DNA of 64,000 bases from NCBI GenBank assembly GCA_041665445.1, contig JBAYIV010000001.1, forward strand, positions 6,334-70,333, given 5' to 3'. This stretch comes from Minisyncoccota bacterium (GTDB lineage: Bacteria > Patescibacteriota > Minisyncoccia > UBA6257 > JAGOQP01). The notes under the pieces are model-generated. The model had not been told where the DNA came from. It made no database searches and saw only the letters and a program-made list of their open reading frames with translations. Shown one piece after another: positions 26,517 through 61,082 of the stretch. How positions within the stretch are numbered: position 1 is the stretch's first letter; each line of letters starts with the position of its first letter. The position numbers and the translations under genes are program-made.

Positions 26517-27038
26517 CTACTTACAAAAACTCAATCCAAAATCAGTTCCAGCATATTGTTGGTCAACACTAATAGGGACACCAACAGTTACCTTTAACTT
26601 ACAAGCATCGCTCTGACTAATCCCTAATTTTTGAAGAAACGCCGCCTCTGCCTGTGTCCGCATCGCCATCACGGGTTTTTGCGAAATAGAAATAGCAAAT
26701 GAATTGTCGGGTTGATAATAGCTAATATCATATCCTGGATTGCGGGCGACAAGAGCCTCGGACCCGCCCGCGGCGACAATTACTGCGTTTTGGTAGAAAT
26801 TATTCACGGTAACCGCTCCCTGCGCGGTAGGAATACTAAAAACACTACTCGAAGACCCGGCCACTGGGGAAGGGGCCGCGGGAGACGTACTCGTTGGAGC
26901 CACAGGAAAGGTACTGCTGGCATTCCCGCCTTGCGGGGGAACGGTTGAGATTGATTGTATATACCAAAAACCCACCACCACGATGGCGACCACAAGAATA
27001 ATGATGCCGCTAATTAATACTATCTTCTTTGTATTCAT
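26517..27038 (-). CDS. Membrane-anchored hypothetical protein, 173 aa
   Basis: N-terminal TM anchor, Pro/Ser linker, then a small extracytoplasmic domain. Confidence 0.45.
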   Translation of the reverse strand: MNTKKIVLISGIIILVVAIVVVGFWYIQSISTVPPQGGNASSTFPVAPTSTSPAAPSPVAGSSSSVFSIPTAQGAVTVNNFYQNAVIVAAGGSEALVARNPGYDISYYQPDNSFAISISQKPVMAMRTQAEAAFLQKLGISQSDACKLKVTVGVPISVDQQYAGTDFGLSFCK

Positions 27039-27059
27039 ATATGGATGGACTAATTATTC

Positions 27060-28172
27060 TTATAAACCGCATTTTTGAATAGTCGCCGGTCCCCACAATC
27101 TCCAACTGCTCCCGTTTCCAGATAATTCGCACGCCTTTGCGATGTTATCGCTGGCACTCTGCGCGGCAGAGAGGCACTGCAAATACAACGCTCTATTGGT
27201 GACATTGCACGTCGGGTGACTGCCAGAAAAGGCATGATCAAAAGCGGTGGGACAATTCAGTCCACTAATGGTGTTTGCGCTGATGTTTATTTGAAATAGG
27301 CCAATGGAGACAGGGCTTCCATCGGCACATTTATCAGTGCCGCTTTGAGCCATTGGGTTCCCAGAACTTTCAATCATACAAACTCCACCAGCGATTTGAG
27401 CATTGCTTCCAAAACAAGAGCCCTGAAGCGCGGCCAGAGAGCACGGACCACTTGCCGGCGGCTGACATTGTCCTCCCGCTTGGCTCCCCACTGTTATTTG
27501 CAACGTGCAACTGTGTGTGGTGTCGTTCCCACCGCCCGTTGGGTCCGCCAGGATTGTCCCAAGAGACACGGTATATATTCCATTGTTTTGGAATGTGTGC
27601 GATGGTGAACCGTCTGAACTGCCAGCAGAACCATCTCCAAACGTCCAGGAAAAAGAGGCGGCCGCATCGACATCGGAAGAAAGAGCCACCGCAAGGGGAG
27701 ACGGACCAGACGATGGGGTCGCTGTGATAACACAGTCGCCGGTCCTGGCTCCAGAAGATGATCCCGAATTGCTCGGAAGCGTTGGGACGTTGGGCACTGT
27801 TGGATTTTTGAGATTGACCAACTCAGGATTGATAGTGTAGAGAATGATAAACCCGCCCAGCAACAGCACCACGCCGAAGATGGCGTTTTTGATAATATCA
27901 AGTGCGTCTCCTTTTGCCGCAGCATTGCCGCCGCTCGCCACATACTTCACACCTCCATACACGATCATAATCACCGCCGCACCGGCAACAATCCCGAGGG
28001 CATAATCATATAAACTTTTAACAAAATCGGCCGGGCTTTGTCCCTGTTGCGTAAACGAAGGCAGGCCCGCGCTGATAACATCAGCGTGCGCGGCGTGTCC
28101 AAAAAGACACAGAGCAATTCCGACAACCATTAAAAGAAAAACCTGTTTTTTTCGTAGATAACGCATGTTCAT
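27060..28172 (-). CDS. Membrane-anchored PKD-domain plus SLT-type lytic transglycosylase (VirB1-like function), 370 aa
   Basis: N-terminal TM region (…LGIVAGAAVIMIVYGGVKYVASGG…FGVVLLLGGFIILY…). PKD motif …FSWTFGDGSAGSSDGSPSHTFQNNGIYTVSL…. SLT motifs …MIESSGNP…GLFQI…. ATGA overlap with the upstream gene. Confidence 0.6.
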   Translation of the reverse strand: MNMRYLRKKQVFLLMVVGIALCLFGHAAHADVISAGLPSFTQQGQSPADFVKSLYDYALGIVAGAAVIMIVYGGVKYVASGGNAAAKGDALDIIKNAIFGVVLLLGGFIILYTINPELVNLKNPTVPNVPTLPSNSGSSSGARTGDCVITATPSSGPSPLAVALSSDVDAAASFSWTFGDGSAGSSDGSPSHTFQNNGIYTVSLGTILADPTGGGNDTTHSCTLQITVGSQAGGQCQPPASGPCSLAALQGSCFGSNAQIAGGVCMIESSGNPMAQSGTDKCADGSPVSIGLFQINISANTISGLNCPTAFDHAFSGSHPTCNVTNRALYLQCLSAAQSASDNIAKACELSGNGSSWRLWGPATIQKCGL

Positions 28173-28924
28173 CGAATAGAAAAGAAGTATGACGCCGATC
28201 CTTGCTCAATGCCGGACTGAGCAGGATTTGACACAACGGCCTGGACAGACTGGCTACCCGCCGCCGCATGCTGATCGAGATGAATAGACAGATGAGACGA
28301 ATCACTGCTCGATTGAGCCGTTGATCCATTGACCGTCCACTTGATGGAAAGCGCCTCTGGAGAAACGGTAAAAAAGAATGGAATAGCCGCAAGATTAATT
28401 ATCTGTCCGGGAGAGAACGAATCAACAAAAGGAGGCGCCTGGATAACAACCTGAGGAGAAACAACGGGAATAGTAAAATAACCCGATTGAATGGCGTTGT
28501 CGCCCATCGTTGGATCGGTGGTCTGCGTCGACACCTTGATATCAAGTTCGCCGCCGCCAAAAACTCTCTTATTCACAAAAAGAATGCTTCCCAAGCCAAT
28601 CCCATGGGCGACCAGATCACCATTAATAAACCACTTGACCGCTCGTCCATCGAGAGAAACAATTTTATTTCCTTGGAGCATCGTCACTGACAAAATAATC
28701 GAGCTTTGGTAGGTGGGCAGCACTTTCCCCGAATACCACGCTGGTGCGCCACCAACGGCGCGCCACGAGAAAAGAAACTGCGGCTGAGTACTCTGGTCTG
28801 CGGCACGAACAAATAAAGCGCCCCCCGACACAAATAAGAAGCTTAAAATAACCGCTCCGCATGCAACATATTTTTTCACATCAATTCTCATCTTTGGATT
28901 AGTATACCACATTCTTATACACAA
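28169..28924 (-). CDS. Secreted/membrane-anchored hypothetical protein, 251 aa
   Basis: N-terminal hydrophobic segment then a β-rich domain. 4-nt start/stop overlap with the downstream gene. Confidence 0.45.
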   Translation of the reverse strand: MCIRMWYTNPKMRIDVKKYVACGAVILSFLFVSGGALFVRAADQSTQPQFLFSWRAVGGAPAWYSGKVLPTYQSSIILSVTMLQGNKIVSLDGRAVKWFINGDLVAHGIGLGSILFVNKRVFGGGELDIKVSTQTTDPTMGDNAIQSGYFTIPVVSPQVVIQAPPFVDSFSPGQIINLAAIPFFFTVSPEALSIKWTVNGSTAQSSSDSSHLSIHLDQHAAAGSQSVQAVVSNPAQSGIEQGSASYFFSIR

Positions 28925-28929
28925 AAAAA

Positions 28930-29736
28930 CTATGCAGCCACATCAATATCATCATCGTTCCCATGCAAACGAGCGGGGGGAGCGCCTTGCTCACCAACGC
29001 CTTTTCCGCGCAAATCAACAACGTCACCGCCTTTGAGAGCCTGGCCGCCCAAAGAACTCTCTTGGGCGTCCTCTCTCTCGTCTTCTGAGTCTTTGTCAAA
29101 CAATTCCTTTCGTAATTCATCTCGCCGCCCCCGAAGCTTCCGCTCGGCATATTTAAGTCCCTTTTCTTTTGTTTTCTGCCCAAGCGTTTTTTCCGTTTCT
29201 TCTTGAGCCATCTCTTCTGCCCCTTTTTGGACCGTTTTTTCAACACCTTCCTCAACCGCCTTCTGGACGATTTTTTCCCCTCCCTGTTCTATCGCCTCTG
29301 TCGCGACCCGTCCGGCGGTTTCGGCCGCCACATCAACCGCTACTGCTCCTGCGGTTTCAGCACCAACAACACCAGCTTCCGCGGCAATGGTCGCGGGGGC
29401 CGCCGTTCCAACCGTAGCCGCTGTTACGGCGATAAGCGCAACAGTAACGGCGGCAAATTCAATAAGCTTGTTAGAGAGCACGATGCCCACAATCAAACCA
29501 ATAATCAGCACCGGCAAAGGAAGTATAAACGAGGCAATAATCACAACCCGTGGAATAAAGTGATGAAATTTGGGGAGCAAAATAAATCCGACAAAAAGCG
29601 CGGCCGTGTAATGGATGATGATGGTCCAGAAAAAGAAGTCACCCACAAAAGCGCAGACAAAAACAAGAAGAATCATTGGCTCAAGAAAATCTATCTCCTT
29701 GAGAGCGTCAAACTCTGCGATTTTTGAGATGTCCAT
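28930..29736 (-). CDS. Polytopic membrane protein with an Ala-rich and strongly acidic/basic C-terminal tail, 268 aa
   Basis: 3-4 TM helices, then AAETAG repeats and a K/E-rich tail. Confidence 0.45.
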   Translation of the reverse strand: MDISKIAEFDALKEIDFLEPMILLVFVCAFVGDFFFWTIIIHYTAALFVGFILLPKFHHFIPRVVIIASFILPLPVLIIGLIVGIVLSNKLIEFAAVTVALIAVTAATVGTAAPATIAAEAGVVGAETAGAVAVDVAAETAGRVATEAIEQGGEKIVQKAVEEGVEKTVQKGAEEMAQEETEKTLGQKTKEKGLKYAERKLRGRRDELRKELFDKDSEDEREDAQESSLGGQALKGGDVVDLRGKGVGEQGAPPARLHGNDDDIDVAA

Positions 29737-29782
29737 ACAAACAGTATATTACACCGCCACAGTCCCCCTCCCAAGAAACAGA

Positions 29783-31549
29783 TTACTGCCCCATAAGATC
29801 GCCCCCCTCTTCGCCGAGCAATTCTTGCGGCTTGGTGGTCACCACTCGATTTTCAAAGAATGACGCCACCACCTGAATGGCCACATGTTTCAATCCCGCA
29901 AAAAACAATCCTTGCCCCACGCCGGACTCAAGCAATAGATTTTTTTCCGCATCGGTAAGATTAAATGTTTTGCCGATGATATCGATACTTGCCGGCGCTT
30001 GTTTGAGTAAGAGCTGAAGCGACGAGTTGGTAATAATCGGCTTGCCATAGGGAGAACCAAGAAAGTCCTCCACCTCCTGCGTGATCGTGGTCAATCCCAG
30101 ATAATATTTGCGGCCGCGCTTTGCTAGCCCGAATAAAAACGCTGCGCCCTCCGGATATTTCATCAACACCCACGCTTCATCGATAACCAGCAAACGACGC
30201 TTGAGCTCCGATCGAACAATGTTCCAAATAAAGTTCAAAATCACATACATCGCGATCGGCCGCAGCTCTTCGTCCAAATCGCGCATTGAAAAAACAATCA
30301 AGCGGTTCCGCAAATCAATATTGGTGCGATGGTTGATAAAGCCGACGTAACTGCCTTCGGTAAACCGATAGAGCTTTTCGCCCATACTGCGCCCTCCCTC
30401 CATATTATGCAACACCGTCTGCAGATCCGACAAAAGTGGCGGATCGATTTTCAAAAAATTCGGATTGTCCGGCGTAATATCATACGAAGCGTACGTTTCC
30501 GTCAGTGCACGATCAAGCAGTGACTCCTCCTCAACGCTGATGTCGCCCAACATAATTTTCAAAAGACCCGTCAGGTTGAGAATGTGCGAACGGAAAACGT
30601 CGGCGGGATCTTCACCCTTGGGAACCTGCGGGATATCGAACGGATTAATATGCTGATCGGACGTTAAAGAAATTTTGAAATAAGTACCCCCAACCGAATC
30701 GCACAAATTTTTATATTCATCTTCCGGATCAATAACAATAACATCGGTCCCAATCATCAGCGACCGAAGAATCTCGAGTTTGCTTGCATATGATTTTCCG
30801 GATCCAGATTTGGCGAAAATAACCATGTTGCCGTTTTCCAGCGAAAAACGGTCGAAAATAACCAGCGAATTATTGTGCTGATTAATGCCGTAGAGAATAC
30901 CTGTTTCAGACGTGAGCTCGGTTGAGACGAAAGGGAAAAACGACGACACGGGGCCCGAATTCATCGGTGTCGTAATCATCAACTTGTCCTGCCCAAGCGG
31001 CAAGCACGAGGTGAGCCCCTCAATCTGCTGGAAAATAGCCGGCTTAATATAAATCAACTTACTTTCAAAAATATTTATTACCGTTTCCTCTAAGTCGTCC
31101 AGCTTCTTCAGCGAGTCGGCATAGATGGTGATGTAGACCGAGGTATCAAAAAGCCGTTCGCGAGCCTGTTGCAGGCTGTCGCGCAACGACTCAATGTCGG
31201 AAAATGCCGTCTCCAGCATCGGGTCGCGCACAAATCCCTTTTCTTGCCGATCGGAAAGTTCGGCCTCTATCTGCGCCGCCTTTTTGCGCAAATTCCGCAA
31301 CGCGAGCGCCGTATCAACGGGATGAACGAAGATTGACGCATCAAAATATTGCGGCAAGTTGATGATCGCCGAAAACCATCCCGTCGAAAGATACCGTGGA
31401 TACGAAAACACAAACAATGTGCGCGCAAACCGCTCGCCTATTTTGACATAGCTTTGGTTAACCTCCATGGCCGCGGGCGCGATGAGATTTTCCATGTCTC
31501 CCTCTTCTTGACCTGCGTATGGTTTTAAAACACGTATTTGATCTGCCAT
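29783..31549 (-). CDS. virB4: VirB4/TrbE/CagE-family T4SS ATPase, C-terminal ATPase portion (588 aa)
   Basis: Walker A …IFAKSGSGKSYASK…. Walker B …VIDEAWVLM…. Length and motif order match the VirB4 ATPase domain. Confidence 0.85.
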   Translation of the reverse strand: MADQIRVLKPYAGQEEGDMENLIAPAAMEVNQSYVKIGERFARTLFVFSYPRYLSTGWFSAIINLPQYFDASIFVHPVDTALALRNLRKKAAQIEAELSDRQEKGFVRDPMLETAFSDIESLRDSLQQARERLFDTSVYITIYADSLKKLDDLEETVINIFESKLIYIKPAIFQQIEGLTSCLPLGQDKLMITTPMNSGPVSSFFPFVSTELTSETGILYGINQHNNSLVIFDRFSLENGNMVIFAKSGSGKSYASKLEILRSLMIGTDVIVIDPEDEYKNLCDSVGGTYFKISLTSDQHINPFDIPQVPKGEDPADVFRSHILNLTGLLKIMLGDISVEEESLLDRALTETYASYDITPDNPNFLKIDPPLLSDLQTVLHNMEGGRSMGEKLYRFTEGSYVGFINHRTNIDLRNRLIVFSMRDLDEELRPIAMYVILNFIWNIVRSELKRRLLVIDEAWVLMKYPEGAAFLFGLAKRGRKYYLGLTTITQEVEDFLGSPYGKPIITNSSLQLLLKQAPASIDIIGKTFNLTDAEKNLLLESGVGQGLFFAGLKHVAIQVVASFFENRVVTTKPQELLGEEGGDLMGQ

Positions 31550-31561
31550 AAAATATGCTCG

Positions 31562-32260
31562 TTATGCCGCACCGCGCGGGGATGGGTGCGCTGTTTCTTT
31601 GGGAAGCTTTTTTTCTATTGTTTCCGGATTGTAGAGATTGTAGTAGAGCTCGGTCAACTCGCCGTCGTTGAGCACCACCGCACGCAAACCAATCTGCGAC
31701 AAGCCCGCGATAACTTGATCAACGCGTTGCTGCAATTGCACCGTCTGCTCCTCAAACGATTCTTGCTCCTCTGTTTTGTTTCCCTTCTTTTTCATAAAAG
31801 GAATGAAATCAGTAATGCTGCGACGCACTTCTTTCAACCCGCCGCTATCATACGGGATAATGGTAAAAAAAGTTTTGGTCATAATCTCATTATTTTTGAC
31901 CAACCCGCCAATATATTCAATGTATTCAGCTGTTTGCGTTTTGAGCAGCTGGCTTGTTTCCGCAACACGGATTTCCTCCATGCGCGCCAGATACGCATCA
32001 ATATTAAGTTTGCGCGAATGGACGATGGTCTGCAAAGAGAAGTCTAGTCCATTGAGAAAGTTTTGGTACGACGACGTGATGATGTCCTGTTCTTCTTGGG
32101 ATTTTAAGTCAAAATTGATCCCCGCCACCATTACCACGGCACGCAAACCACCGCTTTTAAGCGAAACCACCCCGTTTTTAATCTGTTTAACGTCAACAAA
32201 CCGCTGGGTCGAATCAGGCGCAACGGTTATTTTTTCTTTTTCAGTAATGCCTTGGGCCAT
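31562..32260 (-). CDS. VirB4 N-terminal domain encoded as a separate ORF (same frame as 29783..31549, separated by TAA + 4 codons)
   Basis: …VDVKQIKNGVVSLKSGGLRAVVMVAGINFDLKSQEEQDIITSSYQNFLNGLDFSLQTIVHSR… resembles the VirB4 N-terminal (CagE_TrbE_VirB) region. Start trimmed to MAQGITEK to avoid overlap with the VirB3-like gene. Confidence 0.5.
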   Translation of the reverse strand: MAQGITEKEKITVAPDSTQRFVDVKQIKNGVVSLKSGGLRAVVMVAGINFDLKSQEEQDIITSSYQNFLNGLDFSLQTIVHSRKLNIDAYLARMEEIRVAETSQLLKTQTAEYIEYIGGLVKNNEIMTKTFFTIIPYDSGGLKEVRRSITDFIPFMKKKGNKTEEQESFEEQTVQLQQRVDQVIAGLSQIGLRAVVLNDGELTELYYNLYNPETIEKKLPKETAHPSPRGAA

Positions 32261-32306
32261 ACAATACAATAAGTATACACGAAAAGAAGCCGCAAACAAA
32301 AAAGTC

Positions 32307-32831
32307 CTAGCGATAATCAATGCGCCGAGCAACTTCTTTCTCGCCGGTTGTCCGGCGGAAAACCTCAAATTGTTCCCGCACATCTTCAAGTTTCGGTTGC
32401 GGTTCTTTTTCCCGATGAGGGATGGGATTGCGGGTCGTGGAAAGCTCTTGCCACAATTTTGCCACGTTTGAATTTTTCTGCTGCGTTTCCCCCAGCGCCT
32501 GTCGTCGCGCGGCGATGACGACCGTGGGAATGGTGATCATTTCTTGTATCACGGGGCGTTTCCACAAAAAAACCTTGGGGCCCCAGAAAAATTCAACGGC
32601 GTAGATAGTGAGCATATAGAGCGGCCGCTCGTTTATCTTGATAAACGCAAATGATGCACCAGCACCCATGAGAATAATCGCCACCGGTATCCACGCCCAC
32701 AAAGCAAGGGTAAAGTAGAGGAAAAAACACGCCAGCGCTGACGTGGCGACAAAGCCGAATTGCTTGATGGTCAACGGACCAACAATCTTGCTTTCAGTAT
32801 CTATAAATTGAGGAACTTCAAACTGAGCCAT
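32307..32831 (-). CDS. VirB3/PrgI-like small membrane protein, 174 aa
   Basis: Two TM helices near the N-terminus (…FVATSALACFFLYFTLALWAWIPVAIILMGAGASFAF…). Sits immediately upstream of VirB4, as in T4SS loci. Confidence 0.45.
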   Translation of the reverse strand: MAQFEVPQFIDTESKIVGPLTIKQFGFVATSALACFFLYFTLALWAWIPVAIILMGAGASFAFIKINERPLYMLTIYAVEFFWGPKVFLWKRPVIQEMITIPTVVIAARRQALGETQQKNSNVAKLWQELSTTRNPIPHREKEPQPKLEDVREQFEVFRRTTGEKEVARRIDYR

Positions 32832-32882
32832 AAATCTTTCTTAGTATATCCCACCGCCGCTCTTTGTACAAAGCACAAAGAA

Positions 32883-34625
32883 TTATGATTTTCTAAAAAA
32901 AGAGAAGAACCCTCGCTTTTTTTGAGGAGCGGAAACTACCGGTGTTTGGCCATAGCCAACCGCCGGATATTGATCGTGTTTATCAACAGAGATGCCGACG
33001 GTTTGCGCGGCCCCCTGCGATGGTGGGGGAACTTGTACGTCAGCGACCGCTGGTGCCGCGCTTTGATGCGACGGCTGACTAGAAAGATTTTTTGAAAACC
33101 CACTATAGGAAAGGTTTTGATACTGTGATCCCGACCGCGCCTGCGCAACAGACGGATCGTCTCGCTTATGAATGATAACCGGACCCATGTCCACAACTTC
33201 ATTGGGGTCGATTGGTTTTTTATTCACCTCCTGTTGGCGAGGCAAACCCATACCACTCACCATAGGCGCGTCGGCATCTTTTGGTGCCGGAGTCGACGAG
33301 GCTAATGGCGCCATCTTCATGGGGCGAGATGGCATTGCCTCGTGCGCGGGCTGACCCGCCTGATATGGGTTACCCGAGGAGGAACCACCCTCTTCGCGCG
33401 TTTGTCTGACCTCAACGACAACATCGGGTTGCCGTGGCGCCTGTGCCGGTGGAGCCCATTGTATTGGACGAACTTGCGGCGGTGCCTGTTCTGGTTCTGC
33501 GACGCGTCCCGTTGGTTGGTTTAAAACCGGTTGAGTATTTATATTGCCGCCAAACGCAGAGGTTTGAGTGGGGAGGGGTTGTGGAGCGTTGTTCTGCGGA
33601 GCAATCGATACATTGACCGATGCTGGACTTGTGGGAGGCGTTGTTTCAATGGTTTTTTGAGAGATTTTTGTTTCCTGAGGATGAATAACAGGTGCTGACG
33701 GTAATGGAAGAATTTCTTTTTTCTCATTAGGATGTATTGGCTTTCCTGCTATTGGATGCGGCACGGGCATCACCTCCGGAAGACGCGAGTCTTCAATGAC
33801 CGGCAAAAGATCATGTTCTGGTTTTTTTATTTTTGGATCAAGTGCGCCGCTCGGCTTAACCGATGCCGGAGAAGATGGGTGGCGAGCGTTGAGCAGTGCG
33901 GAGTCGTCCGATGGTGCCGCGGCTGGCTGGCCCATGATGCGGCGAGAAGCGGCAATGTTCTCATTTTCTATCCCCCATAAGTCTTTAGTTGAAAGCGAAA
34001 AAATATCTTTCTCTGAATCCGGCGAAGGCGGAACGGGACGGCGAGATGCTCCCTCAACGTCTTGTTTTTTCTGGATAATGGACGGCTCAGATGATGGACT
34101 GGTTTCTTTTTGCTGAAGCGGACGGGACGCACGCGGCGGGACAAACGCACCAGTACCTCCCGATTCTTTCATCGCAAGAATTCTGGGACCCGCTTCTTCT
34201 TTTTTAAGGTTCACTGTTCCCTCGGGCTCGGGCGTTTTAAGATTTATTTGAGAAACAACGTCTGGTTTTTGAACGCTCGCCGCATCAATCACGCCCACTT
34301 TGAATTTCAAATAATTATCCTCGATGTCTTTGCGAATCGGCTCAAAAAGATTAGCGTCAATTTCTTGATATACCGCCAAGGCCGTTTTCTCATTAACCGC
34401 AAGCACTTCTTGAAGCTCGCGCATCGCGTCGCGATAGGGAAGAAAACCGAGAAAAACAAGATCGACGATTTTTTCTAGATCGTATCTATTATCGGGAGTT
34501 ATTTGATTTTTTTCAGCTATGCGATCAAGGTGATGGTCGTTGACAATAGAAAAAATAGCATCTCTTAAAACTTGCGAGATGTTTTCCCATCTTTCATTTA
34601 TCTGTTCACGAGAAATTCTAATCAT
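32883..34625 (-). CDS. Pro/Gln/Ser-rich, largely disordered protein with a structured roughly 115-aa N-terminal domain, 580 aa
   Basis: Continuous ORF in operon orientation. Composition is dominated by P, Q, S and A. No family recognised. Confidence 0.45.
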   Translation of the reverse strand: MIRISREQINERWENISQVLRDAIFSIVNDHHLDRIAEKNQITPDNRYDLEKIVDLVFLGFLPYRDAMRELQEVLAVNEKTALAVYQEIDANLFEPIRKDIEDNYLKFKVGVIDAASVQKPDVVSQINLKTPEPEGTVNLKKEEAGPRILAMKESGGTGAFVPPRASRPLQQKETSPSSEPSIIQKKQDVEGASRRPVPPSPDSEKDIFSLSTKDLWGIENENIAASRRIMGQPAAAPSDDSALLNARHPSSPASVKPSGALDPKIKKPEHDLLPVIEDSRLPEVMPVPHPIAGKPIHPNEKKEILPLPSAPVIHPQETKISQKTIETTPPTSPASVNVSIAPQNNAPQPLPTQTSAFGGNINTQPVLNQPTGRVAEPEQAPPQVRPIQWAPPAQAPRQPDVVVEVRQTREEGGSSSGNPYQAGQPAHEAMPSRPMKMAPLASSTPAPKDADAPMVSGMGLPRQQEVNKKPIDPNEVVDMGPVIIHKRDDPSVAQARSGSQYQNLSYSGFSKNLSSQPSHQSAAPAVADVQVPPPSQGAAQTVGISVDKHDQYPAVGYGQTPVVSAPQKKRGFFSFFRKS

Positions 34626-34650
34626 TGCTTTGTTGATGTGTGTAAAAAAC

Positions 34651-36750
34651 CTATACCAACTTCATTGCGTCACCAAATGCTTTGACGCGGGCATTTTTTG
34701 ACTTCCTCATCTCCGGAGCTAGTTTGGTAATGTCGCCACGTATGGCAGCAAATTTCACTGTCTCCGCCAACTCATCGGCAATTTGCTTATCAAGATTCAC
34801 CTTTCTCTCAACCAAAACCTCTACCTTCTTTTTGGACGCGACGACCGGTCTTCTGTTTTTGATGTCATCTTGATACTCTGTTTGTGCATTATTAATTTCT
34901 GCTTGCAATTTTGTTGGCAGATCGCGCTTATTGTCGGCGACCTGAGTGCTGTATTCATCCAGAACCACACCAGCCCCGTCCATAAAGAATTTCTCGCGAT
35001 CATTGGAATTGGTTATTTGAGCCGCCGTAGCCCTTGTTTTTGCCGGATCATCATAGGCAAGGTTATGTGTCTGATTACGATAGTCAATACTGGCTCCAGT
35101 GCCAAATTTTGCATTTAAGGCGCTGACGCCATTCTTGTCGGCAAAATATTTTCCTTGAGCGATGGCTTTCCCATCGTTTTTCATAAAACGAGCGTAATCA
35201 TCGGACGACATCACGGAAACCGCTTTGCCTGTTTCGGTCATGAACCGAGCCCTGTCGCCGGCCGCATATGCTTGAATCGCGCCTTCATTTAATCCGCGCG
35301 CAGCCAAAACAGCTTGCGCCTCTTTTCCTTTAGGGTTGTCTTTTTTCAATCCTTCATGAAGCGCAATTATTTCCCCCATACTATATTTCCCGCCGTCTCC
35401 ATCGGCCAAAACTTGAGCCATCGCCAATCGCCCCTGCGGACCGCCAATCATTCTTGCTAGTTCGGCTTTTTGTTTTCCGGTACCAGCGAGCTTTGCCTCA
35501 ACGTACGCTTTAGATTTTTCTTCCATAGCTTGAGTCCCCCGCGCATGCATTTGTGCCGCAGAGTCAAGGAACAGCGCTTTCCCCAGAGTTGTGCTCCCCG
35601 CCTTATTGAGTCCACCCTGGAGCTTTGCCCGCATGCTCTTGTCTCCCCCTGCGTTATAGGCACGGTTAGCGCCCCGCGTTCCATATTCCTTTGCTTTGCC
35701 CTTGGTATAATCGGCGACTTTCTTTGCGGAGCCGGTGGCCATCTGACCCCCATAGACACCAATTTTTGACGCCACCATCATGCCACCCATCAGCATAGCA
35801 ACCGCCATCAGCGACCCAACGATATTACTAAACGGCATCCCCGAAACCACATCTCCTCCTTTGGTGGTTAAGGCAGACATAAAACCGCTAAATCCCGGAT
35901 CCTGCGCCCGCCCGCCCACGCCGTTAATTGAGGCATAGAGCTGCATTGATAAATTAAGAAAAAACAAAACAGCCGGAGGGAAAATCATCCATTTTATAAA
36001 TTCATCCCACCAAGATTTCCAGTGTTTTTGCGTTGTGGGGAAAATCCACAGTAACCACACAATAGGCGAAAGCATCATTAAAAACGCCACAAAAAAGTAT
36101 CGCACCAGTAAAATAATGGCAAAACTCAACAATGTCATAAAAATAATAACCTGGATGAAAATACCAACGAGCGCTGTTATGGTGTCACTGATGTCGCTTG
36201 CGGCACTTGAAAAGAAAAAGGTTTTTATTTTATCCATCGCGGTAGAACTCGCATTCGTATACACAAGCGGGTTAAGCGCGCTCACCGTTTTTTCCGCCGC
36301 AATCAACGCCATGTCCCCGGCCGATCCGGTTCCCGATCCGGTCCCGCCCGCGATTGCCGTAAGATAATAATCGGAAAAATTTTGAGACACCACGAGAAAC
36401 GGCGAGATAATAGCCAAGCTAAAATTTACCAAGAGCGCCGCCACGATGAGTTTCCATAAAATCTGAGATGCGGAATAATTTTTCCAACGAAAAATAGTTG
36501 CAAAAGCAATAATAATAATCCCCAGGACAAATCCCAAATTTGCCAGATCACGAAACATTGACCACCCCTGCAAAATAAAACTATTCATTCCGTTCCAATC
36601 AAGATGCGTCAACGTTGAATTAAGCCACAACGCAAGAGCCACCAATAAACTGGCAAGTTTAATTAAAACCGTCACCAAACCCATGAGAAGCGTGGCGAGG
36701 GCCTTAACCACCGTGGCAACACTTGGCAAAAAACCTGTAAAAAGTGGCAT
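34651..36750 (-). CDS. VirB6/TrbL-like polytopic membrane protein with a hydrophilic C-terminal extension, 699 aa
   Basis: 6-8 TM helices in the N-terminal 330 aa (…IIIAFATIFRW…, …ALVGIFIQVIIFMTLLSFAIILLVRYFFVAFLMMLSPIVWLLWIFP…), then a soluble K/A/G-rich domain. Located in a T4SS locus. Confidence 0.55.
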   Translation of the reverse strand: MPLFTGFLPSVATVVKALATLLMGLVTVLIKLASLLVALALWLNSTLTHLDWNGMNSFILQGWSMFRDLANLGFVLGIIIIAFATIFRWKNYSASQILWKLIVAALLVNFSLAIISPFLVVSQNFSDYYLTAIAGGTGSGTGSAGDMALIAAEKTVSALNPLVYTNASSTAMDKIKTFFFSSAASDISDTITALVGIFIQVIIFMTLLSFAIILLVRYFFVAFLMMLSPIVWLLWIFPTTQKHWKSWWDEFIKWMIFPPAVLFFLNLSMQLYASINGVGGRAQDPGFSGFMSALTTKGGDVVSGMPFSNIVGSLMAVAMLMGGMMVASKIGVYGGQMATGSAKKVADYTKGKAKEYGTRGANRAYNAGGDKSMRAKLQGGLNKAGSTTLGKALFLDSAAQMHARGTQAMEEKSKAYVEAKLAGTGKQKAELARMIGGPQGRLAMAQVLADGDGGKYSMGEIIALHEGLKKDNPKGKEAQAVLAARGLNEGAIQAYAAGDRARFMTETGKAVSVMSSDDYARFMKNDGKAIAQGKYFADKNGVSALNAKFGTGASIDYRNQTHNLAYDDPAKTRATAAQITNSNDREKFFMDGAGVVLDEYSTQVADNKRDLPTKLQAEINNAQTEYQDDIKNRRPVVASKKKVEVLVERKVNLDKQIADELAETVKFAAIRGDITKLAPEMRKSKNARVKAFGDAMKLV

Positions 36751-48996: not shown

Positions 48997-49428
48997 CTAT
49001 TCTATTGGTTTTATCACCACGCGCCGATCCTTTCCCTCTCCCTCACTTTCAGTTTTGATGTCTGGATGAATCGCTAACTCGGCATGCACCAAGCGTCGCT
49101 CGTAGGCGTTCATGGGGGGCAGGGGAATTGTTTTTTTCTCTCCCGCTGATTTTTTTGCCGCCGCCCTGGCGAGCTTCACAATAAGATCTTCTCGATTTTT
49201 TCGATAATTATTAATATCGACAAACACGAATGGTTGCCCGCGTTTTTTTGCGATCATTTTCAAAAGAAACTCAAGATCAACAACCAAAGAAGGGATGTGC
49301 CGATCCAAATAAGGGCCCTCGTTTAAAAACACCGACAAGCGGCGCGATTCTTCGGTGATTGCAATGGAGAAGTCAGAGAACCCCATAAACCGAAGCATTT
49401 GCTCAAAAATATCTTTAATCTCATTCAT
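48997..49428 (-). CDS. jag: Jag/SpoIIIJ-associated KH + R3H domain protein
   Basis: R3H motif …NAYERRLVHAELA…. Sits downstream of yidC with a 4-nt overlap. Confidence 0.8.
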   Translation of the reverse strand: MNEIKDIFEQMLRFMGFSDFSIAITEESRRLSVFLNEGPYLDRHIPSLVVDLEFLLKMIAKKRGQPFVFVDINNYRKNREDLIVKLARAAAKKSAGEKKTIPLPPMNAYERRLVHAELAIHPDIKTESEGEGKDRRVVIKPIE

Positions 49429-50144
49429 ATGTTCTGCGACGTTTGTATCTTTCTATTGATAATAATTTGCTGGACAGTCGAGAACGCTGAGGTGGTCAAC
49501 CAATAAAGCGCCACCGCCGACGGCAACGACCACAAAATAACCACCGAAAGCAATGGTCCCATGTACATCATTTGGCGCCCCATGCGCTCGGCCATAGACA
49601 GCTCACTCCCCCTTTTCCCGCTTCGTCCAGCCGCCTTAAGCAGGAAATATGACTGCAGATATTGAAACACCGCGGCCAGAACCACCAACACCACGCTACG
49701 CGAACTTAAATCAAAGAGCCCGATAAAATGATAATTAATACTCGCCGGAAGATGGACGAATGAATACAACAACGACACGTCAACATTTTTTAACCCGCGC
49801 AAAAAAACACCATACAGCGCGATGAGAATTGGCAGCTGGATGATAATAAAAAGAAAGCCGGAAAAGGGGTTGACGCGGTGCTCTTTATACACCGCCATAA
49901 TTTCTTTTACTTGTCGCTCTTTGTCTTCCTTGTGTATTTTTTGAAGTTCCTGAATGCGTGGCGCTATTTTTTGAAGAATAGTTTGATCTTTGGCGCTTTT
50001 ATAGAAAAGCGGCAAGAGTACAAAACGGACAATGAGGGTAAGCAAAACAATGGCCACCCCCAAGTCAGCATAAATATTATTATATAAAAAAAATAGGAGG
50101 TTTAATAACGGGCGGTAAAGAAATTGGGTGTAGATATATATCAT
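49425..50144 (-). CDS. yidC: Membrane protein insertase YidC/Oxa1 (short form), 239 aa
   Basis: 5 TM helices. Conserved …LLPLFYKSAKDQTILQKIAPRIQELQKIHKEDKERQVKEIMAVYKEHRVNPFSG…. Confidence 0.9.
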   Translation of the reverse strand: MIYIYTQFLYRPLLNLLFFLYNNIYADLGVAIVLLTLIVRFVLLPLFYKSAKDQTILQKIAPRIQELQKIHKEDKERQVKEIMAVYKEHRVNPFSGFLFIIIQLPILIALYGVFLRGLKNVDVSLLYSFVHLPASINYHFIGLFDLSSRSVVLVVLAAVFQYLQSYFLLKAAGRSGKRGSELSMAERMGRQMMYMGPLLSVVILWSLPSAVALYWLTTSAFSTVQQIIINRKIQTSQNI

Positions 50145-50669: not shown

Positions 50670-50918
50670 GGGGTCACCATAACAAAACCACCGCCAAAAA
50701 GCAACCGGTGCACACACCTAAGTGCCTGTGGATAACCAAATCAAGTCATTACAATAATTAACTTTTAAAACCACCCCAATGAAAAGACGCCTTAAAATAA
50801 GCCGCTTAGGAGAAATACACAGGTTGTGCACAGATTGCTTTGTTGGTGGACTTTCTTTTGTTTTTTCTTTCATCTAGAATGCTGGCAACGCGCCACAAGC
50901 ATCACCCTTTCAAAATAC
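50670..50918. promoter_or_regulatory. rpmH/dnaA divergent intergenic region with a perfect DnaA box (cctgTGTGGATAAcc, about 50727-50735); candidate oriC part or dnaA autoregulatory site
   Basis: The consensus 9-mer TGTGGATAA is present. Both divergent promoters must lie here. Confidence 0.45.
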
Positions 50919-52289
50919 ATGGACTTAAAAAATGCGTGGGAAAAGACGCTTTCGGAGATAGAACTCCAAATATCAAAACCAAACTTTTTGACATGGTTTA
51001 AAAACAGCCGCCTTATTAAAAAAGACGACACTACCGGTACGGTGGTGGTGGGGGTGGCAAATAATTTTGCGAAAGAGTGGATTCGAAATAAATATCACAA
51101 AACCATTCTTGAGCTTTTACAAAAATCAGACCAGGGCATCTGCCGCATCGAATACATCGTGCTCGCCGGCGACGCGGAGGAAAAGTTATTTACCGCAATT
51201 AAAAAAGATCCCGATCGAATTGCTCAACAGGAGGGCATTTTTGAGTTGTCAGTTGATCCAGAAAGCAACCTGCATCCGCGCTACAATTTTAAAAGTTTTG
51301 TTGTCGGCTCATCAAACGAGCTGGCATACGCGGCATCAATGGCGGTTGCGCGAGACGTGGGGAAAAAATATAATCCCCTCTTTATTTATGGGGGGACGGG
51401 GCTGGGGAAAACCCACCTCATACAAGCCATTGGCAATGAAATTATTAAAACCTATCGTAATCGCGTGAAAGTAAAATATGTCCCCTCTGAGCGTTTTGTA
51501 AATGATGTCATTTGGGCCATCCGCTCAAAGCGAACCGAGGACATCAAAAATAAATACCGCACCATTGACGTTCTTATTATCGACGATATTCAGTTTATCG
51601 GCGGAAAGCCCGCGAGCGAAGAAGAGTTTTTTCACACATTCAACATCCTGCATCAAAACAATAAACAAATTATCATTTCTTCCGATCGTCCCCCCGCCGC
51701 GATCCCCACACTCGAAGAGCGTCTTCGGTCACGCTTTGAGGGCGGGATGATTGTCGATGTTTCCTTCCCTGATTATGAGATGAAAATGGCAATTATTAAA
51801 AACAAGGTTCAAGACAAGGGATTTGAGCTCTCGGATAGCGTGTGCCATGTTATTGCCTCAAAAATACAAAGAAACATCAGGGAAATAGAGGGGATTATTA
51901 ATAAATTGTATTTCTATAAAGAAATTAAAAACACTCCCATTGACGTGAAAGTTGCCGAGGACATCATCAACGCAACCATTCAACAAAGCGCGGCCAACAT
52001 TAACCCAAACCAAATTCTTAAGTCGGTGGCTTCGTTTTTTGAAGTCTCTCAAAATGATCTTATTACCTCGTCGCGACGCAAAGAAATCGTTCTTCCGCGA
52101 CAAGTGGTTATGTTTTTGATGCGGGATATGTTGGGGATGTCTTATCCGGACATTGGGGATAAGCTGGGGAAGCGCGATCACACCACCGCGATACACTCTT
52201 TTGAAAAAATAGCGCGTGAAATAACCACCGATCGAATGTTAAATCAAAAAATTATCCTTATTAAAGAATTAATCAATAAAAATCCTTAA
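50919..52289 (+). CDS. dnaA: Chromosomal replication initiator DnaA (about 456 aa)
   Basis: Start trimmed to MDLKNAWEK. AAA+ Walker A …GGTGLGKTHL…. C-terminal DNA-binding domain …ITSSRRKEIVLPRQVVMFLMRDMLGMSYPDIGDKLGKRDHTTAIHS…. Confidence 0.95.
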   Translation: MDLKNAWEKTLSEIELQISKPNFLTWFKNSRLIKKDDTTGTVVVGVANNFAKEWIRNKYHKTILELLQKSDQGICRIEYIVLAGDAEEKLFTAIKKDPDRIAQQEGIFELSVDPESNLHPRYNFKSFVVGSSNELAYAASMAVARDVGKKYNPLFIYGGTGLGKTHLIQAIGNEIIKTYRNRVKVKYVPSERFVNDVIWAIRSKRTEDIKNKYRTIDVLIIDDIQFIGGKPASEEEFFHTFNILHQNNKQIIISSDRPPAAIPTLEERLRSRFEGGMIVDVSFPDYEMKMAIIKNKVQDKGFELSDSVCHVIASKIQRNIREIEGIINKLYFYKEIKNTPIDVKVAEDIINATIQQSAANINPNQILKSVASFFEVSQNDLITSSRRKEIVLPRQVVMFLMRDMLGMSYPDIGDKLGKRDHTTAIHSFEKIAREITTDRMLNQKIILIKELINKNP

Positions 52290-52432
52290 CACAGGATTTC
52301 CTTCTTTTTCCACAAAGTTATACACATGCACTTTATTAAAAAAACCCTTATTTTCCTTTAAGATCTCACCACTATCCACTATCCACAGGCACTACTACTC
52401 CTACTACTATTTATATTTATATATAAGAACAC
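52290..52432. promoter_or_regulatory. dnaA-dnaN intergenic region with tandem DnaA-box-like repeats (CCACTATCCACTATCCACAGG) followed by an AT-rich tract (TATTTATATTTATATATAAG); candidate oriC unwinding region
   Basis: Two TATCCAC(A) 8/9 matches in tandem, about 30 bp upstream of a roughly 25-bp stretch that is more than 85% AT, directly before the dnaN start. Confidence 0.5.
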
Positions 52433-53554
52433 ATGAACATCGTCATACTAAAAAACAACATTAAAGAGGGACTTGCTATTATTGCCGGGGCGCACAAAGA
52501 AGGCTCTCACTTGCCGGTGCTGAAAAATTTTCTTTTCGTTGCCCATAATGACGTGGTGCAGCTCACTTCGACTGATTTGGAACTTGCGATGCAGTATACT
52601 GTTTCGGCAAAAATTATTAATGACGGCAGTATTGCTATTCCTTTTTCCATATTCTCTCAAATTATCAGCAATCTTTCTTCTGAGCGAATAAGTTTTGAAC
52701 ACAAAGGATCATCGCTTCTCGTGGTGAGTGATAATTATAAAGCAAAAATAACAACCGCTAACACCGATGAATATCCGATCATTCCAGTAATTGAAGATGG
52801 AAAAGCTCAACAATTCACTTTCGACCCAGATGCATTTATTGATGGATTGGCGGCGGTTTCATCGGCGTGTCAAATATCGGACATCCGGCCGGAATTAAGC
52901 GGAGCGTATGTCTCGTACAAGGGCGGTGTGTTGAAGTTTGTTGCGACTGACAGTTTTCGGCTCGCTGAAAAAATAGTTTCAGAAAAAAAATACGAAACAA
53001 CGCTTACTACAGATATCGCGTGTATTATTCCGCTCAAAACAATCCAAGAAGTTGTGCGTGTTTTTTCTCTTAAAAAAGACGGAAAAATTACCATGCGGTT
53101 TGACGATCATCAAATAGAATTTAAAACCGAACACATTTCAATTATTTCAAGACTTATTGAGGGAAAGTTTCCTGACTACAGCGTTATTATTCCGGGTCAA
53201 TTTTCAACCGAGGTGGTTTTAAAAACGAGCGATGTTATCGCGGCGGTGAAAGTAACGAGCTCGCTTTCGAATCGATTGCATGAGGTGAAGTTTGTTATTG
53301 ATGATACGTTGAAAAATATTCAAATCATTTCAATGAGTCAGGAGTTTGGTGAGAGCGAATATATTCTTCCGGCAAAAATAAAAGGGCAAACAAACAAAAT
53401 AACTTTTAACTGGCGCTTTGTTCTTGATGGGCTTAAAAATATTAAAACAGAAAATGTTCTTATGGGATTTAACGGCGAGGACAAACCAACGGTTTTTAAA
53501 TCCCCCGACGATACACTGTTTCTTTATATTGTTATGCCAATTAAATCAGCGTAG
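52433..53554 (+). CDS. dnaN: DNA polymerase III β sliding clamp
   Basis: 373 aa with the three-domain β-clamp pattern. MNIVILKNNIKEGLAIIAGAH…. Immediately follows dnaA. Confidence 0.95.
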   Translation: MNIVILKNNIKEGLAIIAGAHKEGSHLPVLKNFLFVAHNDVVQLTSTDLELAMQYTVSAKIINDGSIAIPFSIFSQIISNLSSERISFEHKGSSLLVVSDNYKAKITTANTDEYPIIPVIEDGKAQQFTFDPDAFIDGLAAVSSACQISDIRPELSGAYVSYKGGVLKFVATDSFRLAEKIVSEKKYETTLTTDIACIIPLKTIQEVVRVFSLKKDGKITMRFDDHQIEFKTEHISIISRLIEGKFPDYSVIIPGQFSTEVVLKTSDVIAAVKVTSSLSNRLHEVKFVIDDTLKNIQIISMSQEFGESEYILPAKIKGQTNKITFNWRFVLDGLKNIKTENVLMGFNGEDKPTVFKSPDDTLFLYIVMPIKSA

Positions 53555-57343: not shown

Positions 57344-57862
57344 CTAAAAAATATTCGTGTAATATCTTAATGATATACAATTATCTAATAACGTTATAGC
57401 CGCAAGATCGAGGCGGTATCCATTCGTTCCAATGAGTTTGTCATATTTATTTGCATACCATTCAGATATTTTTTTAAAATTGCCGATCTTTTTGGACGAC
57501 ATTTGGTCTTCTGGCGTAAAATCAATTTCGTTTGCAATCAATGATTGCCGGATGTATTTGTTTACGTTGCCGAACAGAAGTGGATAACTTTCTTCATATG
57601 GTTTCTCTTTGTCTTTCCTCTCATCCATGGTCTTAACCTCCAAAAAAATCAAGGTTTTATCTGATGATTTGGCGACAATGTCGAGCTCGCCGAATTTCGT
57701 AGAAAAATTTCTTTCTATTATTTTTAAACCGATATACTCAAGATATCCACAGCAGATATTCTCGCCAAATTGCCCAACTTTTTGCCGCTCTGTTTTGTGG
57801 CTGCCATCCATGATTTTTATGGGATATATTAAATTATACCCCATAAATTTATTTTGTTCCAA
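57344..57862 (-). CDS. YraN/UPF0102-family (PD-(D/E)xK) endonuclease-like protein with an insertion, 172 aa; low-GC gene
   Basis: …GENICCGYLEYIGLKIIERNFSTKFGELDIVAKSSDKTLIFLEVKT…RLDLAAITL… matches the YraN pattern (GE..A..yL…G…I..RN…GEIDlIa…FVEVKtR…RfDviav). Confidence 0.55.
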   Translation of the reverse strand: MEQNKFMGYNLIYPIKIMDGSHKTERQKVGQFGENICCGYLEYIGLKIIERNFSTKFGELDIVAKSSDKTLIFLEVKTMDERKDKEKPYEESYPLLFGNVNKYIRQSLIANEIDFTPEDQMSSKKIGNFKKISEWYANKYDKLIGTNGYRLDLAAITLLDNCISLRYYTNIF

Positions 57863-57910
57863 TGAATTTTTTGTTTGCCGGATTAAATTGTTTTGCTAAC
57901 TGGTCGGCTT

Positions 57911-57999
57911 TTTAATAAAAATGTTTCACGTGAAACATTTTTATTAAAATCAGTTAGAAAATTGATGATTTTAAATGTTTCACGTGAAACATTTAAAAT
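57911..57999. promoter_or_regulatory. Two perfect palindromic operator-like sites sharing the 20-bp core AATGTTTCACGTGAAACATT (38-bp palindrome at about 57911-57948; 30-bp palindrome at about 57970-57999), about 55 bp centre-to-centre; two further direct TGTTTCAC half-sites at about 58057-58077
   Basis: TTTAATAAAAATGTTTCAC|GTGAAACATTTTTATTAAA and TTTTAAATGTTTCAC|GTGAAACATTTAAAA lie in the AT-rich divergent intergenic region between the yraN-like gene and gene 58390. Confidence 0.55.
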
Positions 58000-58389
58000 T
58001 GGATTTTTGTAAAAGAGTAGATTTTAAGCCATAATTGAGCTTACTGTGTTTTAAAATGTTTCACACTTTTGTTTCACGCTGTTAAAACACTAGGTTTAAT
58101 GAGCCAATTCAACAACGGCTCAAATCCTATGTATTTCAGAAACATTCTTTTGGTTTTTTAATGATGAGTATTTATGGGCTGGTTGACTTGAGCGATAAAT
58201 ACTATCTTTTTCTTTTGAATAACAAAAAGATGTCCACGTGGTTTGTCGCGGCGATTGCCGGACTTATTATTTTTGTTTTCTGATTTTTTAGTCGCCGTGT
58301 GCGCTTATTCTTTTAGTTGTCTTGGTGTTATACTAAAAAAAGTACGCTGTCTTTGTTGTGTCGCGTCTATCGGCGCAGAGGAGGACTAG

Positions 58390-58641
58390 ATGAATATTGC
58401 GGAATGTGTTGGTGATGTGATTGTTTTCCAGTGTGGCAACAAAACAAGAAACAACATCGACCCCCCGCTTGACCCAGGTCGATTTTATCGCGCGACCATC
58501 CATGGGGTGGTTGAGAAAAAGGGAGACCTGCTTCTCGCTCTTTGGTTTGTCAGTTATCATCATGGCGGAGCAGATCTCTGTCCCCATGACCGCTTAACTC
58601 TTTACTTGTCGGATCTGATTTTTTGGAGGGTTTGGCCTTAG
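58390..58641 (+). CDS. Hypothetical small protein, 83 aa
   Basis: Good SD (GAGGAGG, 6-nt spacer) before the ATG. No family recognised. Confidence 0.45.
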   Translation: MNIAECVGDVIVFQCGNKTRNNIDPPLDPGRFYRATIHGVVEKKGDLLLALWFVSYHHGGADLCPHDRLTLYLSDLIFWRVWP

Positions 58642-58724: not shown

Positions 58725-59906
58725 TTGTCTGGTGGTATACTGTGGAATATGATTTCTCGTGGCGTTGCGACATTTACATTAGATGAGGGGAGGTGTCCGC
58801 CGTGGTTGTTCGCACGGATGGTTGTGTTGGCGCGGGCGATGATTGATGTAATTGTCGATGATGTCGGGTCCGATGAATTTGTGTGGCGACTTTCTGATCC
58901 TGTTTGGTTTCAATCATTGGGGACGGTGCTGGCATTTGATTGGAATGCGTCTGGGCTCACCACCATTCTCACGGCGGCACTCAAGGAGGCGATTCGGGGG
59001 AAGGAGCGCGAGTTGGGGATTTTTGTGTGTGGCGGAAAAGGGAAGACTTCGCGCAAAACACCCGATGAAATTATGATGTGGTCGGAGCGCGCGAGCGTGG
59101 CACCGGATGATGCGCGCTGGCTGGTGTACAGTTCGCGGATGGCGGCAAAGGTGGATAGTGCGTTGGTCCAGGATGGTTATCAAATTTATCATCACGCATT
59201 TGTTTTTTCAAAAAATGGTTCGTGGTCGGTTGTTCAGCAGGGGATGGACGTTAAATCGGGGACGGCGCGACGCTACCATTGGCATGGGTCGTCGGTGAAA
59301 GATTTTATTGTTGAGCCGCACGCGGGGATTGTCGCACAAAAAACGAAGCAGCAGACGCTTAATTTGACGGCTCGCGAGGGAGATGTAAATCGGGCAACGA
59401 GCGTTGATTTGGCGGGGAGTAATTTCGCCTCACTGGTGCGTGACTTGCGGTTGGTTGACAGACATTCGTCGTCATTGTCTAATATGGTTCGAGCAAAAAG
59501 CGTTGATGGGGAAAGACAGTTGACGCTTCTTGCCCTTTCGCACAATGAATTTGCCCATCACTCCGTTGAAAGGGAGTCGTTTTCCCGGAGCAAATATCTT
59601 CAAAAAATATTATATCTTCTGGGAGAGCGGAAGCCAAAAACATATGAACAACTTGTGGCAACGCCGGGGGTTGGTCCCAAGACCGTGCGGGCGCTGGCGT
59701 TGGTGGCTGAGGTGTTGTATGGCGCACCCGCGTCGTTCCGGGATCCAGCGCGATACAGCTTTGCACATGGAGGAAAAGATGCGACGCCATATCCGGTTGA
59801 TCGGGCTACCTACGACAGCACCATAGCGGCGTTTAAAAAATATGTTCGTTGTGCTGAGCTAAAAACAACTCAGCGCCAGGACGTTTTGCGGCGCATAGAA
59901 AAATAA
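58725..59906 (+). CDS. Conserved hypothetical protein with a C-terminal helix-hairpin-helix (possibly DUF763-like), 393 aa
   Basis: HhH motif …LVATPGVGPKTVRALALVAEVLYGAP…. The DUF763 assignment is from memory only; the rest is unassigned. Confidence 0.45.
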   Translation: MSGGILWNMISRGVATFTLDEGRCPPWLFARMVVLARAMIDVIVDDVGSDEFVWRLSDPVWFQSLGTVLAFDWNASGLTTILTAALKEAIRGKERELGIFVCGGKGKTSRKTPDEIMMWSERASVAPDDARWLVYSSRMAAKVDSALVQDGYQIYHHAFVFSKNGSWSVVQQGMDVKSGTARRYHWHGSSVKDFIVEPHAGIVAQKTKQQTLNLTAREGDVNRATSVDLAGSNFASLVRDLRLVDRHSSSLSNMVRAKSVDGERQLTLLALSHNEFAHHSVERESFSRSKYLQKILYLLGERKPKTYEQLVATPGVGPKTVRALALVAEVLYGAPASFRDPARYSFAHGGKDATPYPVDRATYDSTIAAFKKYVRCAELKTTQRQDVLRRIEK

Positions 59907-60850: not shown

Positions 60851-60862
60851 ATATTATAGGGG

Positions 60863-60935
60863 TGCGCCCACTTGGACTCGAACCAAGGACCGACCGTGTA
60901 TAAGACGGTTGCTCTACCAGCTGAGCTATGGGCGC
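60863..60935 (-). tRNA. tRNA-Ile (anticodon TAT, i.e. UAU, reading AUA)
   Basis: Minus-strand reading GCGCCCATAGCTCAGCTGGTAGAGCAACCGTCTTATACACGGTCGGTCCTTGGTTCGAGTCCAAGTGGGCGCA has a 5-bp anticodon stem ACCGT/ACGGT and CTTATAC loop, giving anticodon TAT. Confidence 0.75.
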
Positions 60936-61082
60936 AAAAGCGCGTACCAATATTAAAAAATAAAAGGCACTCGTGCCTACAAAAAGCATAGCGCACTTAA
61001 CGCATCTTTTCAATTCAAAAACCGCCGCAGAAGGGCAGTTTTTGAGGGGGAACGCGATGGCCAGTGTTTGGCGCTGTGCTCG

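Follow-up and report, generated by a model that had tools for sequence, protein, structure and literature searches.

The window, that is, the whole stretch of 64 kb of DNA that was analysed, is chromosomal, corresponds to bases 6297-70296 of JGI contig Ga0376277_0001298 (the source contig, 105,231 bp), and includes the probable replication origin. It carries dnaA and dnaN on the plus strand, followed by the genes of PBP1A, RuvC, YebC and YraN, all on the minus strand, and by an AT-rich spacer that separates the yraN-like gene from a small ORF of 83 codons on the plus strand. The genes and spacers that frame the locus are the following:

49425-50144, minus strand: yidC, by gene annotation
50826-52289, plus strand: dnaA (Pfam Bac_DnaA, E = 2.9e-65)
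52306-52432, plus strand: probable oriC in the dnaA-dnaN spacer (DnaA boxes, CTA repeats, AT-rich stretch, GC-skew minimum)
52433-53554, plus strand: dnaN (Pfam DNA_pol3_beta, all three domains)
57344-57811, minus strand: yraN-like gene, UPF0102 (Pfam PF02021 and synteny)
57812-58389, no strand: divergent intergenic spacer with the candidate parS cluster (AT-rich, 32% GC)
57833-57862, minus strand: predicted sigma-70-type yraN promoter, TTGGAA-18-TATAAT (consensus scan, 10/12), between parS-1 and the ATG
58390-58641, plus strand: 83-aa ORF, real and lineage-restricted, 51% identical to a 92-aa ORF of the relatives L083/L084

The dnaA-dnaN spacer (143 bp) contains the boxes TTTTCCACA, TTATACACA, and CTATCCACA, the last also written CTATCCAC-TATCCACA. 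These are followed by the series CTA-CTA-CT-C-CTA-CTA-CTA and then by the AT-rich stretch TTTATATTTATATATAAG just before the dnaN ATG. We take the CTA repeats to resemble the DnaA-trio element, reportedly described by Richardson and colleagues in 2016. GC skew is negative from position 1 to about 52 kb and positive thereafter, with a cumulative minimum at about 52.5-52.8 kb, and PBP1A, a minus-strand gene lying between this point and the cluster, shows positive skew. The skew switch and the DnaA boxes together place the probable oriC at about 52.3-52.43 kb, with the palindromes of the spacer 5.5 kb to its right.

The yraN-like gene, which codes for a member of a nuclease-fold family, heads a yraN-yebC-ruvC-(small ORF)-PBP1A block and is always found next to the palindrome cluster. 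Its longest ORF starts from a TTG at 57862, while JGI calls the ATG at 57811. On the other side of the spacer, the 83-aa protein matched no Pfam family and, among the relatives compared, has a homologue in L083/L084 only. An extended -10 element, TGTTATACT at 58326-58334, is conserved with L083 and is the predicted promoter of the 83-aa gene; the conserved block around it (58322-58340, TTGGTGTTATACTAAAAA) probably represents the same extended -10 promoter. A further block at 58166-58200, GAGTAT..ATG..CT.GTTGA.TTGAGCGAT.AA, is conserved with L083 as well, and the 40-aa ORF that overlies it is not conserved. Downstream of the 83-aa ORF lies a DUF763 gene (58725-59906), whose protein is unusually conserved, with 52-63% identity over Patescibacteria, Planctomycetota, Omnitrophota, and others. 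A search of the spacer with Rfam returned nothing but spurious microRNA-hairpin matches far below threshold, and an RNA gene in the spacer was discarded on that ground.

Palindromes and half-sites in the yraN-upstream spacer

The original prediction described a 20-bp palindrome occurring twice about 55 bp apart, embedded in longer palindromes and followed by two extra half-sites, all between divergently oriented genes. The 20-mer AATGTTTCACGTGAAACATT is indeed present in exactly two copies in the 64-kb window, at 57920-57939 and 57974-57993, with starts 54 bp apart; no further match with up to three mismatches was found in the window, and shuffling gave 0 in 100 shuffles. Both longer palindromes exist as well, although they measure 40 and 32 bp instead of the 38 and 30 bp first reported. 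The two extra half-sites fall where expected after the full sites, and the flanking genes are divergent, with the yraN-like gene on the minus strand and the 83-aa ORF on the plus strand. The elements of the cluster are:

57910-57949, no strand: 40-bp perfect palindrome around parS-1, with 12 extra symmetric bp per arm
57922-57937, no strand: parS-1, 16-bp core TGTTTCACGTGAAACA, 16/16 identical to consensus parS
57968-57999, no strand: 32-bp perfect palindrome around parS-2, by palindrome detection
57976-57991, no strand: parS-2, 16-bp core, 16/16 identical to consensus parS, 54 bp from parS-1
58057-58078, plus strand: tandem direct half-parS pair, TGTTTCACA-CTTT-TGTTTCACG, a 21-nt block that is invariant between the window and L083/L084

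The stretch that is identical between the two copies is the 22-bp AAATGTTTCACGTGAAACATTT. A recent tandem duplication of the 54-bp unit was considered and rejected because only these 22 bp are common to both copies. No degenerate copies of the 16-mer were found in the window outside the two sites. As single-stranded DNA, the 40-bp palindrome folds with -14.2 kcal/mol (z = -7.8) and the second one with -10.8 kcal/mol (z = -5.7), and both are flanked by A/T runs. The half-site TGTTTCAC recurs on the plus strand at 58057-58064 and 58070-58077, 13 bp apart, and of the seven copies of this 8-mer in the window, all but one are located in the spacer between yraN and the 83-aa gene.

The consensus parS is TGTTTCAC-GTGAAACA (bioRxiv 10.1101/724823), to which both cores conform at every position. 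In the literature searched, the papers that contain the string TGTTTCACGTGAAACA all deal with ParB/parS or with origin prediction. parS is the centromere-like site where ParB (Spo0J) nucleates; it is usually located near the origin, is often clustered, ranges in number from 1 copy to over 20, and is used for segregation driven by ParA and for the loading of SMC (PMC7333895). The binding site of Noc, NBS (TATTTCCCGGGAAATA), is also a 16-bp palindrome for a ParB-family protein; it was set aside since its sequence differs, the window sites matching parS, and not NBS, at the specificity positions.

Conservation in relatives and association with parAB

Relatives were gathered through YebC homologues of 77-62% identity, the nearest named ones being Candidatus Parcubacteria, Paceibacterota, and Harrisonbacteria; a search of metagenome contigs with the YraN protein yielded no relatives. 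The gene order dnaA-dnaN-PBP1A-small ORF-ruvC-yebC-yraN, followed by a long spacer, is kept in all of them, and the orthologous spacer of five related Parcubacteria-like lineages contains two to eight exact parS. The loci compared are:

L083: YebC 77% identical; 2 exact parS, 54 bp apart as in the window
L084: strain variant of L083; 1 exact parS, lacking exactly the 54 bp between the sites
L085/L086: YebC 64% identical; 3 exact parS
L087: YebC 63% identical; 8 exact parS; 806-kb contig
L089 (AP024682.1): YebC 63% identical; 2 exact parS
L093: YebC 62% identical; 3 exact parS
L090: YebC 55% identical, a more distant lineage; 0 exact parS within ±10 kb

Comparison of the intergenic region among relatives, proposed with the original prediction, thus finds the exact 16-mer kept in five related lineages, and the 16-mers are confined to the yraN-upstream spacer, with none in the remainder of each 12-20-kb locus. 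Site spacing ranges from 53 to 227 bp, the arrays span 70-770 bp of a single spacer with every site a perfect consensus, and the site nearest to the yraN start lies 54-144 bp from it, the lower values (54-70 bp) being those of L085, L089, and L093. The spacers of the window and of L083 are 60% identical overall, with 100% identity in the two sites and in the half-site pair. Moreover, when the window spacer was compared by blastn with four more distant relatives, the matches with E < 0.001 fell on parS and half-site stretches only. Such full identity of the sites amid a diverged spacer points to selection on the exact sequence rather than on structure or on position relative to a promoter; judged by these alignments, the core is kept by selection in the relatives while the surrounding DNA diverges. 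The clean 54-bp deletion between repeats in L084 indicates, therefore, that parS copy number changes by recombination between sites.

The association of such site pairs with partition genes was assessed on control loci, namely metagenome contigs chosen solely for two exact 16-mers 30-60 bp apart (80 loci, 586 kb, 27-71% GC). The tblastn queries were B. subtilis Spo0J and Soj; the Spo0J query scores as ParB_N, HTH_ParB, and ParB_C in Pfam, and both queries detect homologues in the control loci. ParA was found in 50 of the 80 loci and ParB in 43, usually 1-2 kb from the sites, and many of the loci without either are short contigs; a close pair of the 16-mers is, on these counts, the mark of a parABS locus. 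Another 80 loci, found through DUF763 homologues in genome contigs of many phyla, contained no parS and gave no information on synteny.

In the clade under study, the same queries gave no match in the window, in the further parts of the source contig that were covered (about 80 of its 105 kb in total), or in the flanks of the relatives. Profile HMMs built from 37 ParB and 43 ParA proteins of the control loci reached a best E of 0.96 over the window together with L001 and L091 (about 80 kb of the source contig), and nothing better than this value on the flanks, up to 10 kb per side, of seven related contigs. Similarly, Pfam scans of about 45 ORFs of the window returned no ParB or ParA, and no ParB signature peptides were found in its six reading frames. 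A ParB is presumably encoded in this genome nonetheless, since its site is strictly conserved, and it likely binds the candidate sites described here.

Chromosomal parS as the probable reading, and its competitors

The best explanation of the palindromes is that they are chromosomal parS, i.e., centromere-like loading sites of a ParABS/SMC system, which in this Parcubacteria/Paceibacterota-like bacterium lie on the right of oriC at a distance of 5.5 kb; the probability of this reading is put at about 0.9. Its support consists of the identity to the consensus, the proximity to the origin, the strict conservation in relatives, and the statistical link between such pairs and parAB elsewhere. Since the core is the consensus parS and lies 5.5 kb from the origin, the cluster is an ordinary feature in a little-studied lineage and not a new gene switch. 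By analogy with Bacillus, Caulobacter, and other bacteria, a ParB (Spo0J) dimer would recognise each 16-bp palindrome through one helix-turn-helix per TGTTTCAC half. Upon CTP binding, the ParB clamp would close and slide to the flanking DNA, and the two sites would jointly nucleate a single partition complex over the origin region. If ParA is present, this complex would be moved by it, and it would also be expected to load SMC condensin. The tandem TGTTTCACA half-sites could most simply act as additional low-affinity ParB sites.

As regards the site itself, the parS of Bacillus subtilis and Caulobacter crescentus (TGTTTCACGTGAAACA) share the same 16 bp, the location near the origin, the multiple copies, and the intergenic position. 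The genomic context differs. Many bacteria have their parS inside the parAB locus or next to it, as do 43-50 of the 80 control loci, whereas in this clade none of these genes was found within 10 kb per side; for the window cluster, the search for parAB extended leftwards over about 50 kb of the source contig and found none, and the genes that constantly accompany the sites are yraN-yebC-ruvC. Streptomyces coelicolor and Listeria innocua have 20-23 origin-proximal parS, compared with two to eight in this clade, where the number is also lineage-variable. Furthermore, known dense clusters are spread over many kb and include degenerate variants, unlike the short arrays of perfect sites found here within one spacer. 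The residual novelty is small: the sites are separated from parAB, half-sites occur in tandem, and the palindromes are long.

The original prediction interpreted the cluster as an operator array, and part of this interpretation stands: the palindromes are arrayed and, to judge from their sequence, suited to a dimeric helix-turn-helix protein. The part that does not stand is a local transcriptional role, as the core is the universal parS. It is very unlikely that the palindromes are bound by a local dimeric repressor which would control both the yraN operon and the 83-aa gene divergent from it. Features shared with the operators of dimeric repressors are the perfect inverted repeats, the two copies about five helical turns apart, and the location within a divergent promoter region; in addition, a weak promoter-like match, TTTAAA-18-TAAAAT (9/12, a prediction), brackets parS-2 on both strands, and in L085, L089, and L093 only 54-70 bp separate the yraN start from the nearest site upstream. 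However, the position of the sites relative to the promoters, all of them predictions, does not seem to be fixed; in the window they lie outside the yraN promoter, 60 bp upstream of its -35, while that of the 83-aa gene is about 330 bp away, and copy number (2-8) and spacing (53-227 bp) vary freely among relatives, as is not the case for an operator anchored to a promoter. Annotation of the flanking genes bears out the earlier remark that no cognate regulator gene is adjacent, and the binders then put forward fail on conservation: the 83-aa protein occurs in the closest relative only, the DUF763 gene is not beside the sites in L085, L087, L089, and L093, and neither gene is thus a conserved neighbour. 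The weak match around parS-2 and the sites 54-70 bp from yraN in three relatives make an incidental effect of ParB binding on transcription possible.

A reading of the TGTTTCAC(G/A) motifs as lineage-specific DnaA boxes, with the AT-rich spacer as oriC or as its second part, is highly improbable. It draws on the sequence of TGTTTCACA, which is one mismatch away from the relaxed DnaA box TTWTNCACA, on the AT content of the spacer, which is higher than anywhere else near the origin (27% GC in the 300 bp of 57800-58099), and on the Ori-Finder paper, in which the same palindrome in Bradyrhizobiaceae was read as paired DnaA boxes. Conversely, TTWTNCACA itself accompanies dnaA in the window as well as in four of the five relatives, and it is absent from the yraN-upstream spacer in the five lineages checked; the GC-skew minimum falls at 52.5-52.8 kb, and skew is positive in PBP1A, which is encoded on the minus strand between that point and the spacer; and pairs of the same 16-mer adjoin parAB in the control loci. 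It is still less credible that the palindromes function without any sequence-specific protein, whether as RNA hairpins, as DNA cruciforms, or as intrinsic terminators acting in both directions. The folds are very stable, A/T runs lie beside the stems, and the symmetry extends around parS beyond chance both in the clade and in unrelated bacteria; nevertheless, a terminator or hairpin role, the hairpin having been suggested along with the operator, does not fit because both flanking genes start, and none ends, in the spacer of all six lineages. In addition, a terminator scan did not flag the palindromes, and it is the exact 16 bp that is conserved, while the extensions differ or are absent and the core shows no compensatory changes, which a pure structure would permit. 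Lastly, the chance is next to negligible that the sites serve as centromere not to the chromosome but to a partition cassette from an integrated plasmid or phage. The partition sites of mobile elements are also repeated palindromes, and the window has type IV secretion genes and an integrase-family gene elsewhere, but six lineages of 62-77% YebC identity have the sites in one and the same chromosomal spacer, next to housekeeping genes, the sequence of the sites is the chromosomal consensus, and no par genes, integrase, or repeat boundaries are found nearby.

With chromosomal parS as the preferred reading, the cluster would mainly be of use in annotation, marking the chromosome centromere and, together with the dnaA-dnaN spacer, locating the replication origin in the genome of an uncultured Parcubacteria-like bacterium. 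Recognising the palindrome as parS also helps to avoid two errors that recur in its annotation, namely calling it an operator or a set of DnaA boxes. Moreover, the cluster suggests that ParB and parS, the latter with its universal sequence, are at work in this section of the Candidate Phyla Radiation; in the literature searched, no mention was found of ParB or parS in Patescibacteria, Parcubacteria, or the CPR.

Tandem half-sites, extended symmetry and minor observations

Same-strand tandem pairs of TGTTTCACA(C), 10-13 bp apart, are found in four of the six lineages, namely the window, L083 (1932-1953), L087 (8363-8427), and L093, which has two pairs (9149-9168 and 9270-9289), and their orientation relative to yraN varies between lineages. 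The 80 control loci contain no such tandem pair, though 38 isolated halves are located near full sites. The pair in the window probably represents secondary ParB half-sites, the alternative being weak DnaA boxes. ParB of Pseudomonas aeruginosa occupies half-parS heptamers (PMC10419367), which makes weak ParB sites the simplest reading of the tandem halves. Isolated TGTTTCAC halves near full sites are common to both cases, while the putative half-sites of this clade are same-strand tandem pairs, mostly TGTTTCACA(C), unlike the P. aeruginosa heptamers.

Symmetry beyond the core is found at seven of 20 clade sites (35%), which are symmetric over at least 5 further bp per arm and include palindromes of 40 and 32 bp in the window and of 38, 30, and 28 bp in L087. 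The flank sequences of these extended palindromes differ from site to site, and extensions are absent from about half of the sites. In a permutation test on 17 clade sites, in which the left flank of one site was paired with the right flank of another, the mean symmetry had p ~0.001 and none of 20,000 permutations gave seven such sites. Among 224 control sites from unrelated bacteria (L095-L174), 8.5% have 5 or more extra symmetric bp per arm and 4.5% have 7 or more, a frequency about 30 times that of a hand estimate from the base frequencies of the flanks. Thus a minority of parS sites in general have extra symmetry, which is commoner in the clade than in the control (Fisher p = 0.002, with sites that are not independent). 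A mutational origin is favoured, if speculatively: template switching may perfect or extend palindromes, or sites may be born by inverted duplication. Some G+C-rich extended examples in the control, such as L153 at 4118, resemble terminator stems, the parS being located in the loop.

The tandem half-sites and the long palindromes are modest leads on the birth of centromere sites and on ParB loading. They could be part of an unusual clade centromere, consisting of a compact array of perfect parS uncoupled from parAB, with clade-specific tandem TGTTTCACA half-sites 10-13 bp apart and palindromes of up to 40 bp with site-specific flanks; this is unlikely. In that event, either a half-site may give rise to a new parS through template switching or inverted duplication around it, or ParB loading in these tiny cells may use extruded cruciforms or head-to-tail binding to half-sites. 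In the extreme version, ParB would have been lost from the clade and the sites would be read by another protein.

An extreme origin-adjacent array was observed outside the clade sample in L114 (Ga0180436_10000184), where 15 exact parS 16-mers lie within 1 kb (1044-2027) directly upstream of a dnaA whose product is 42% identical to that of the window, with no parAB in the 14 kb examined. The 8-mer TTGCCGGA is over-represented in the window, with 16 copies against 4.0 ± 1.9 expected. Six of its copies lie on the same strand at 12489-12694, within the ORF 12238-13209, and this cluster may encode a peptide repeat. The copies at 57875 and 58255 flank the parS cluster and are conserved in L083, and the spacers of L087 and L089 have three each. 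Components of type IV secretion (TraG-like ATPase, PrgI, and a pilin with PKD domains), which are typical of Patescibacteria, are encoded at 26517-36750, and an array of eight T4SS-pilin genes occurs just past the end of the window (L001, 89-3403). Finally, a predicted tRNA-Ile with the anticodon TAT is located at 60860-60936, next to a tRNA-Val (TAC); tRNA-Ile with a UAU anticodon is uncommon in bacteria.
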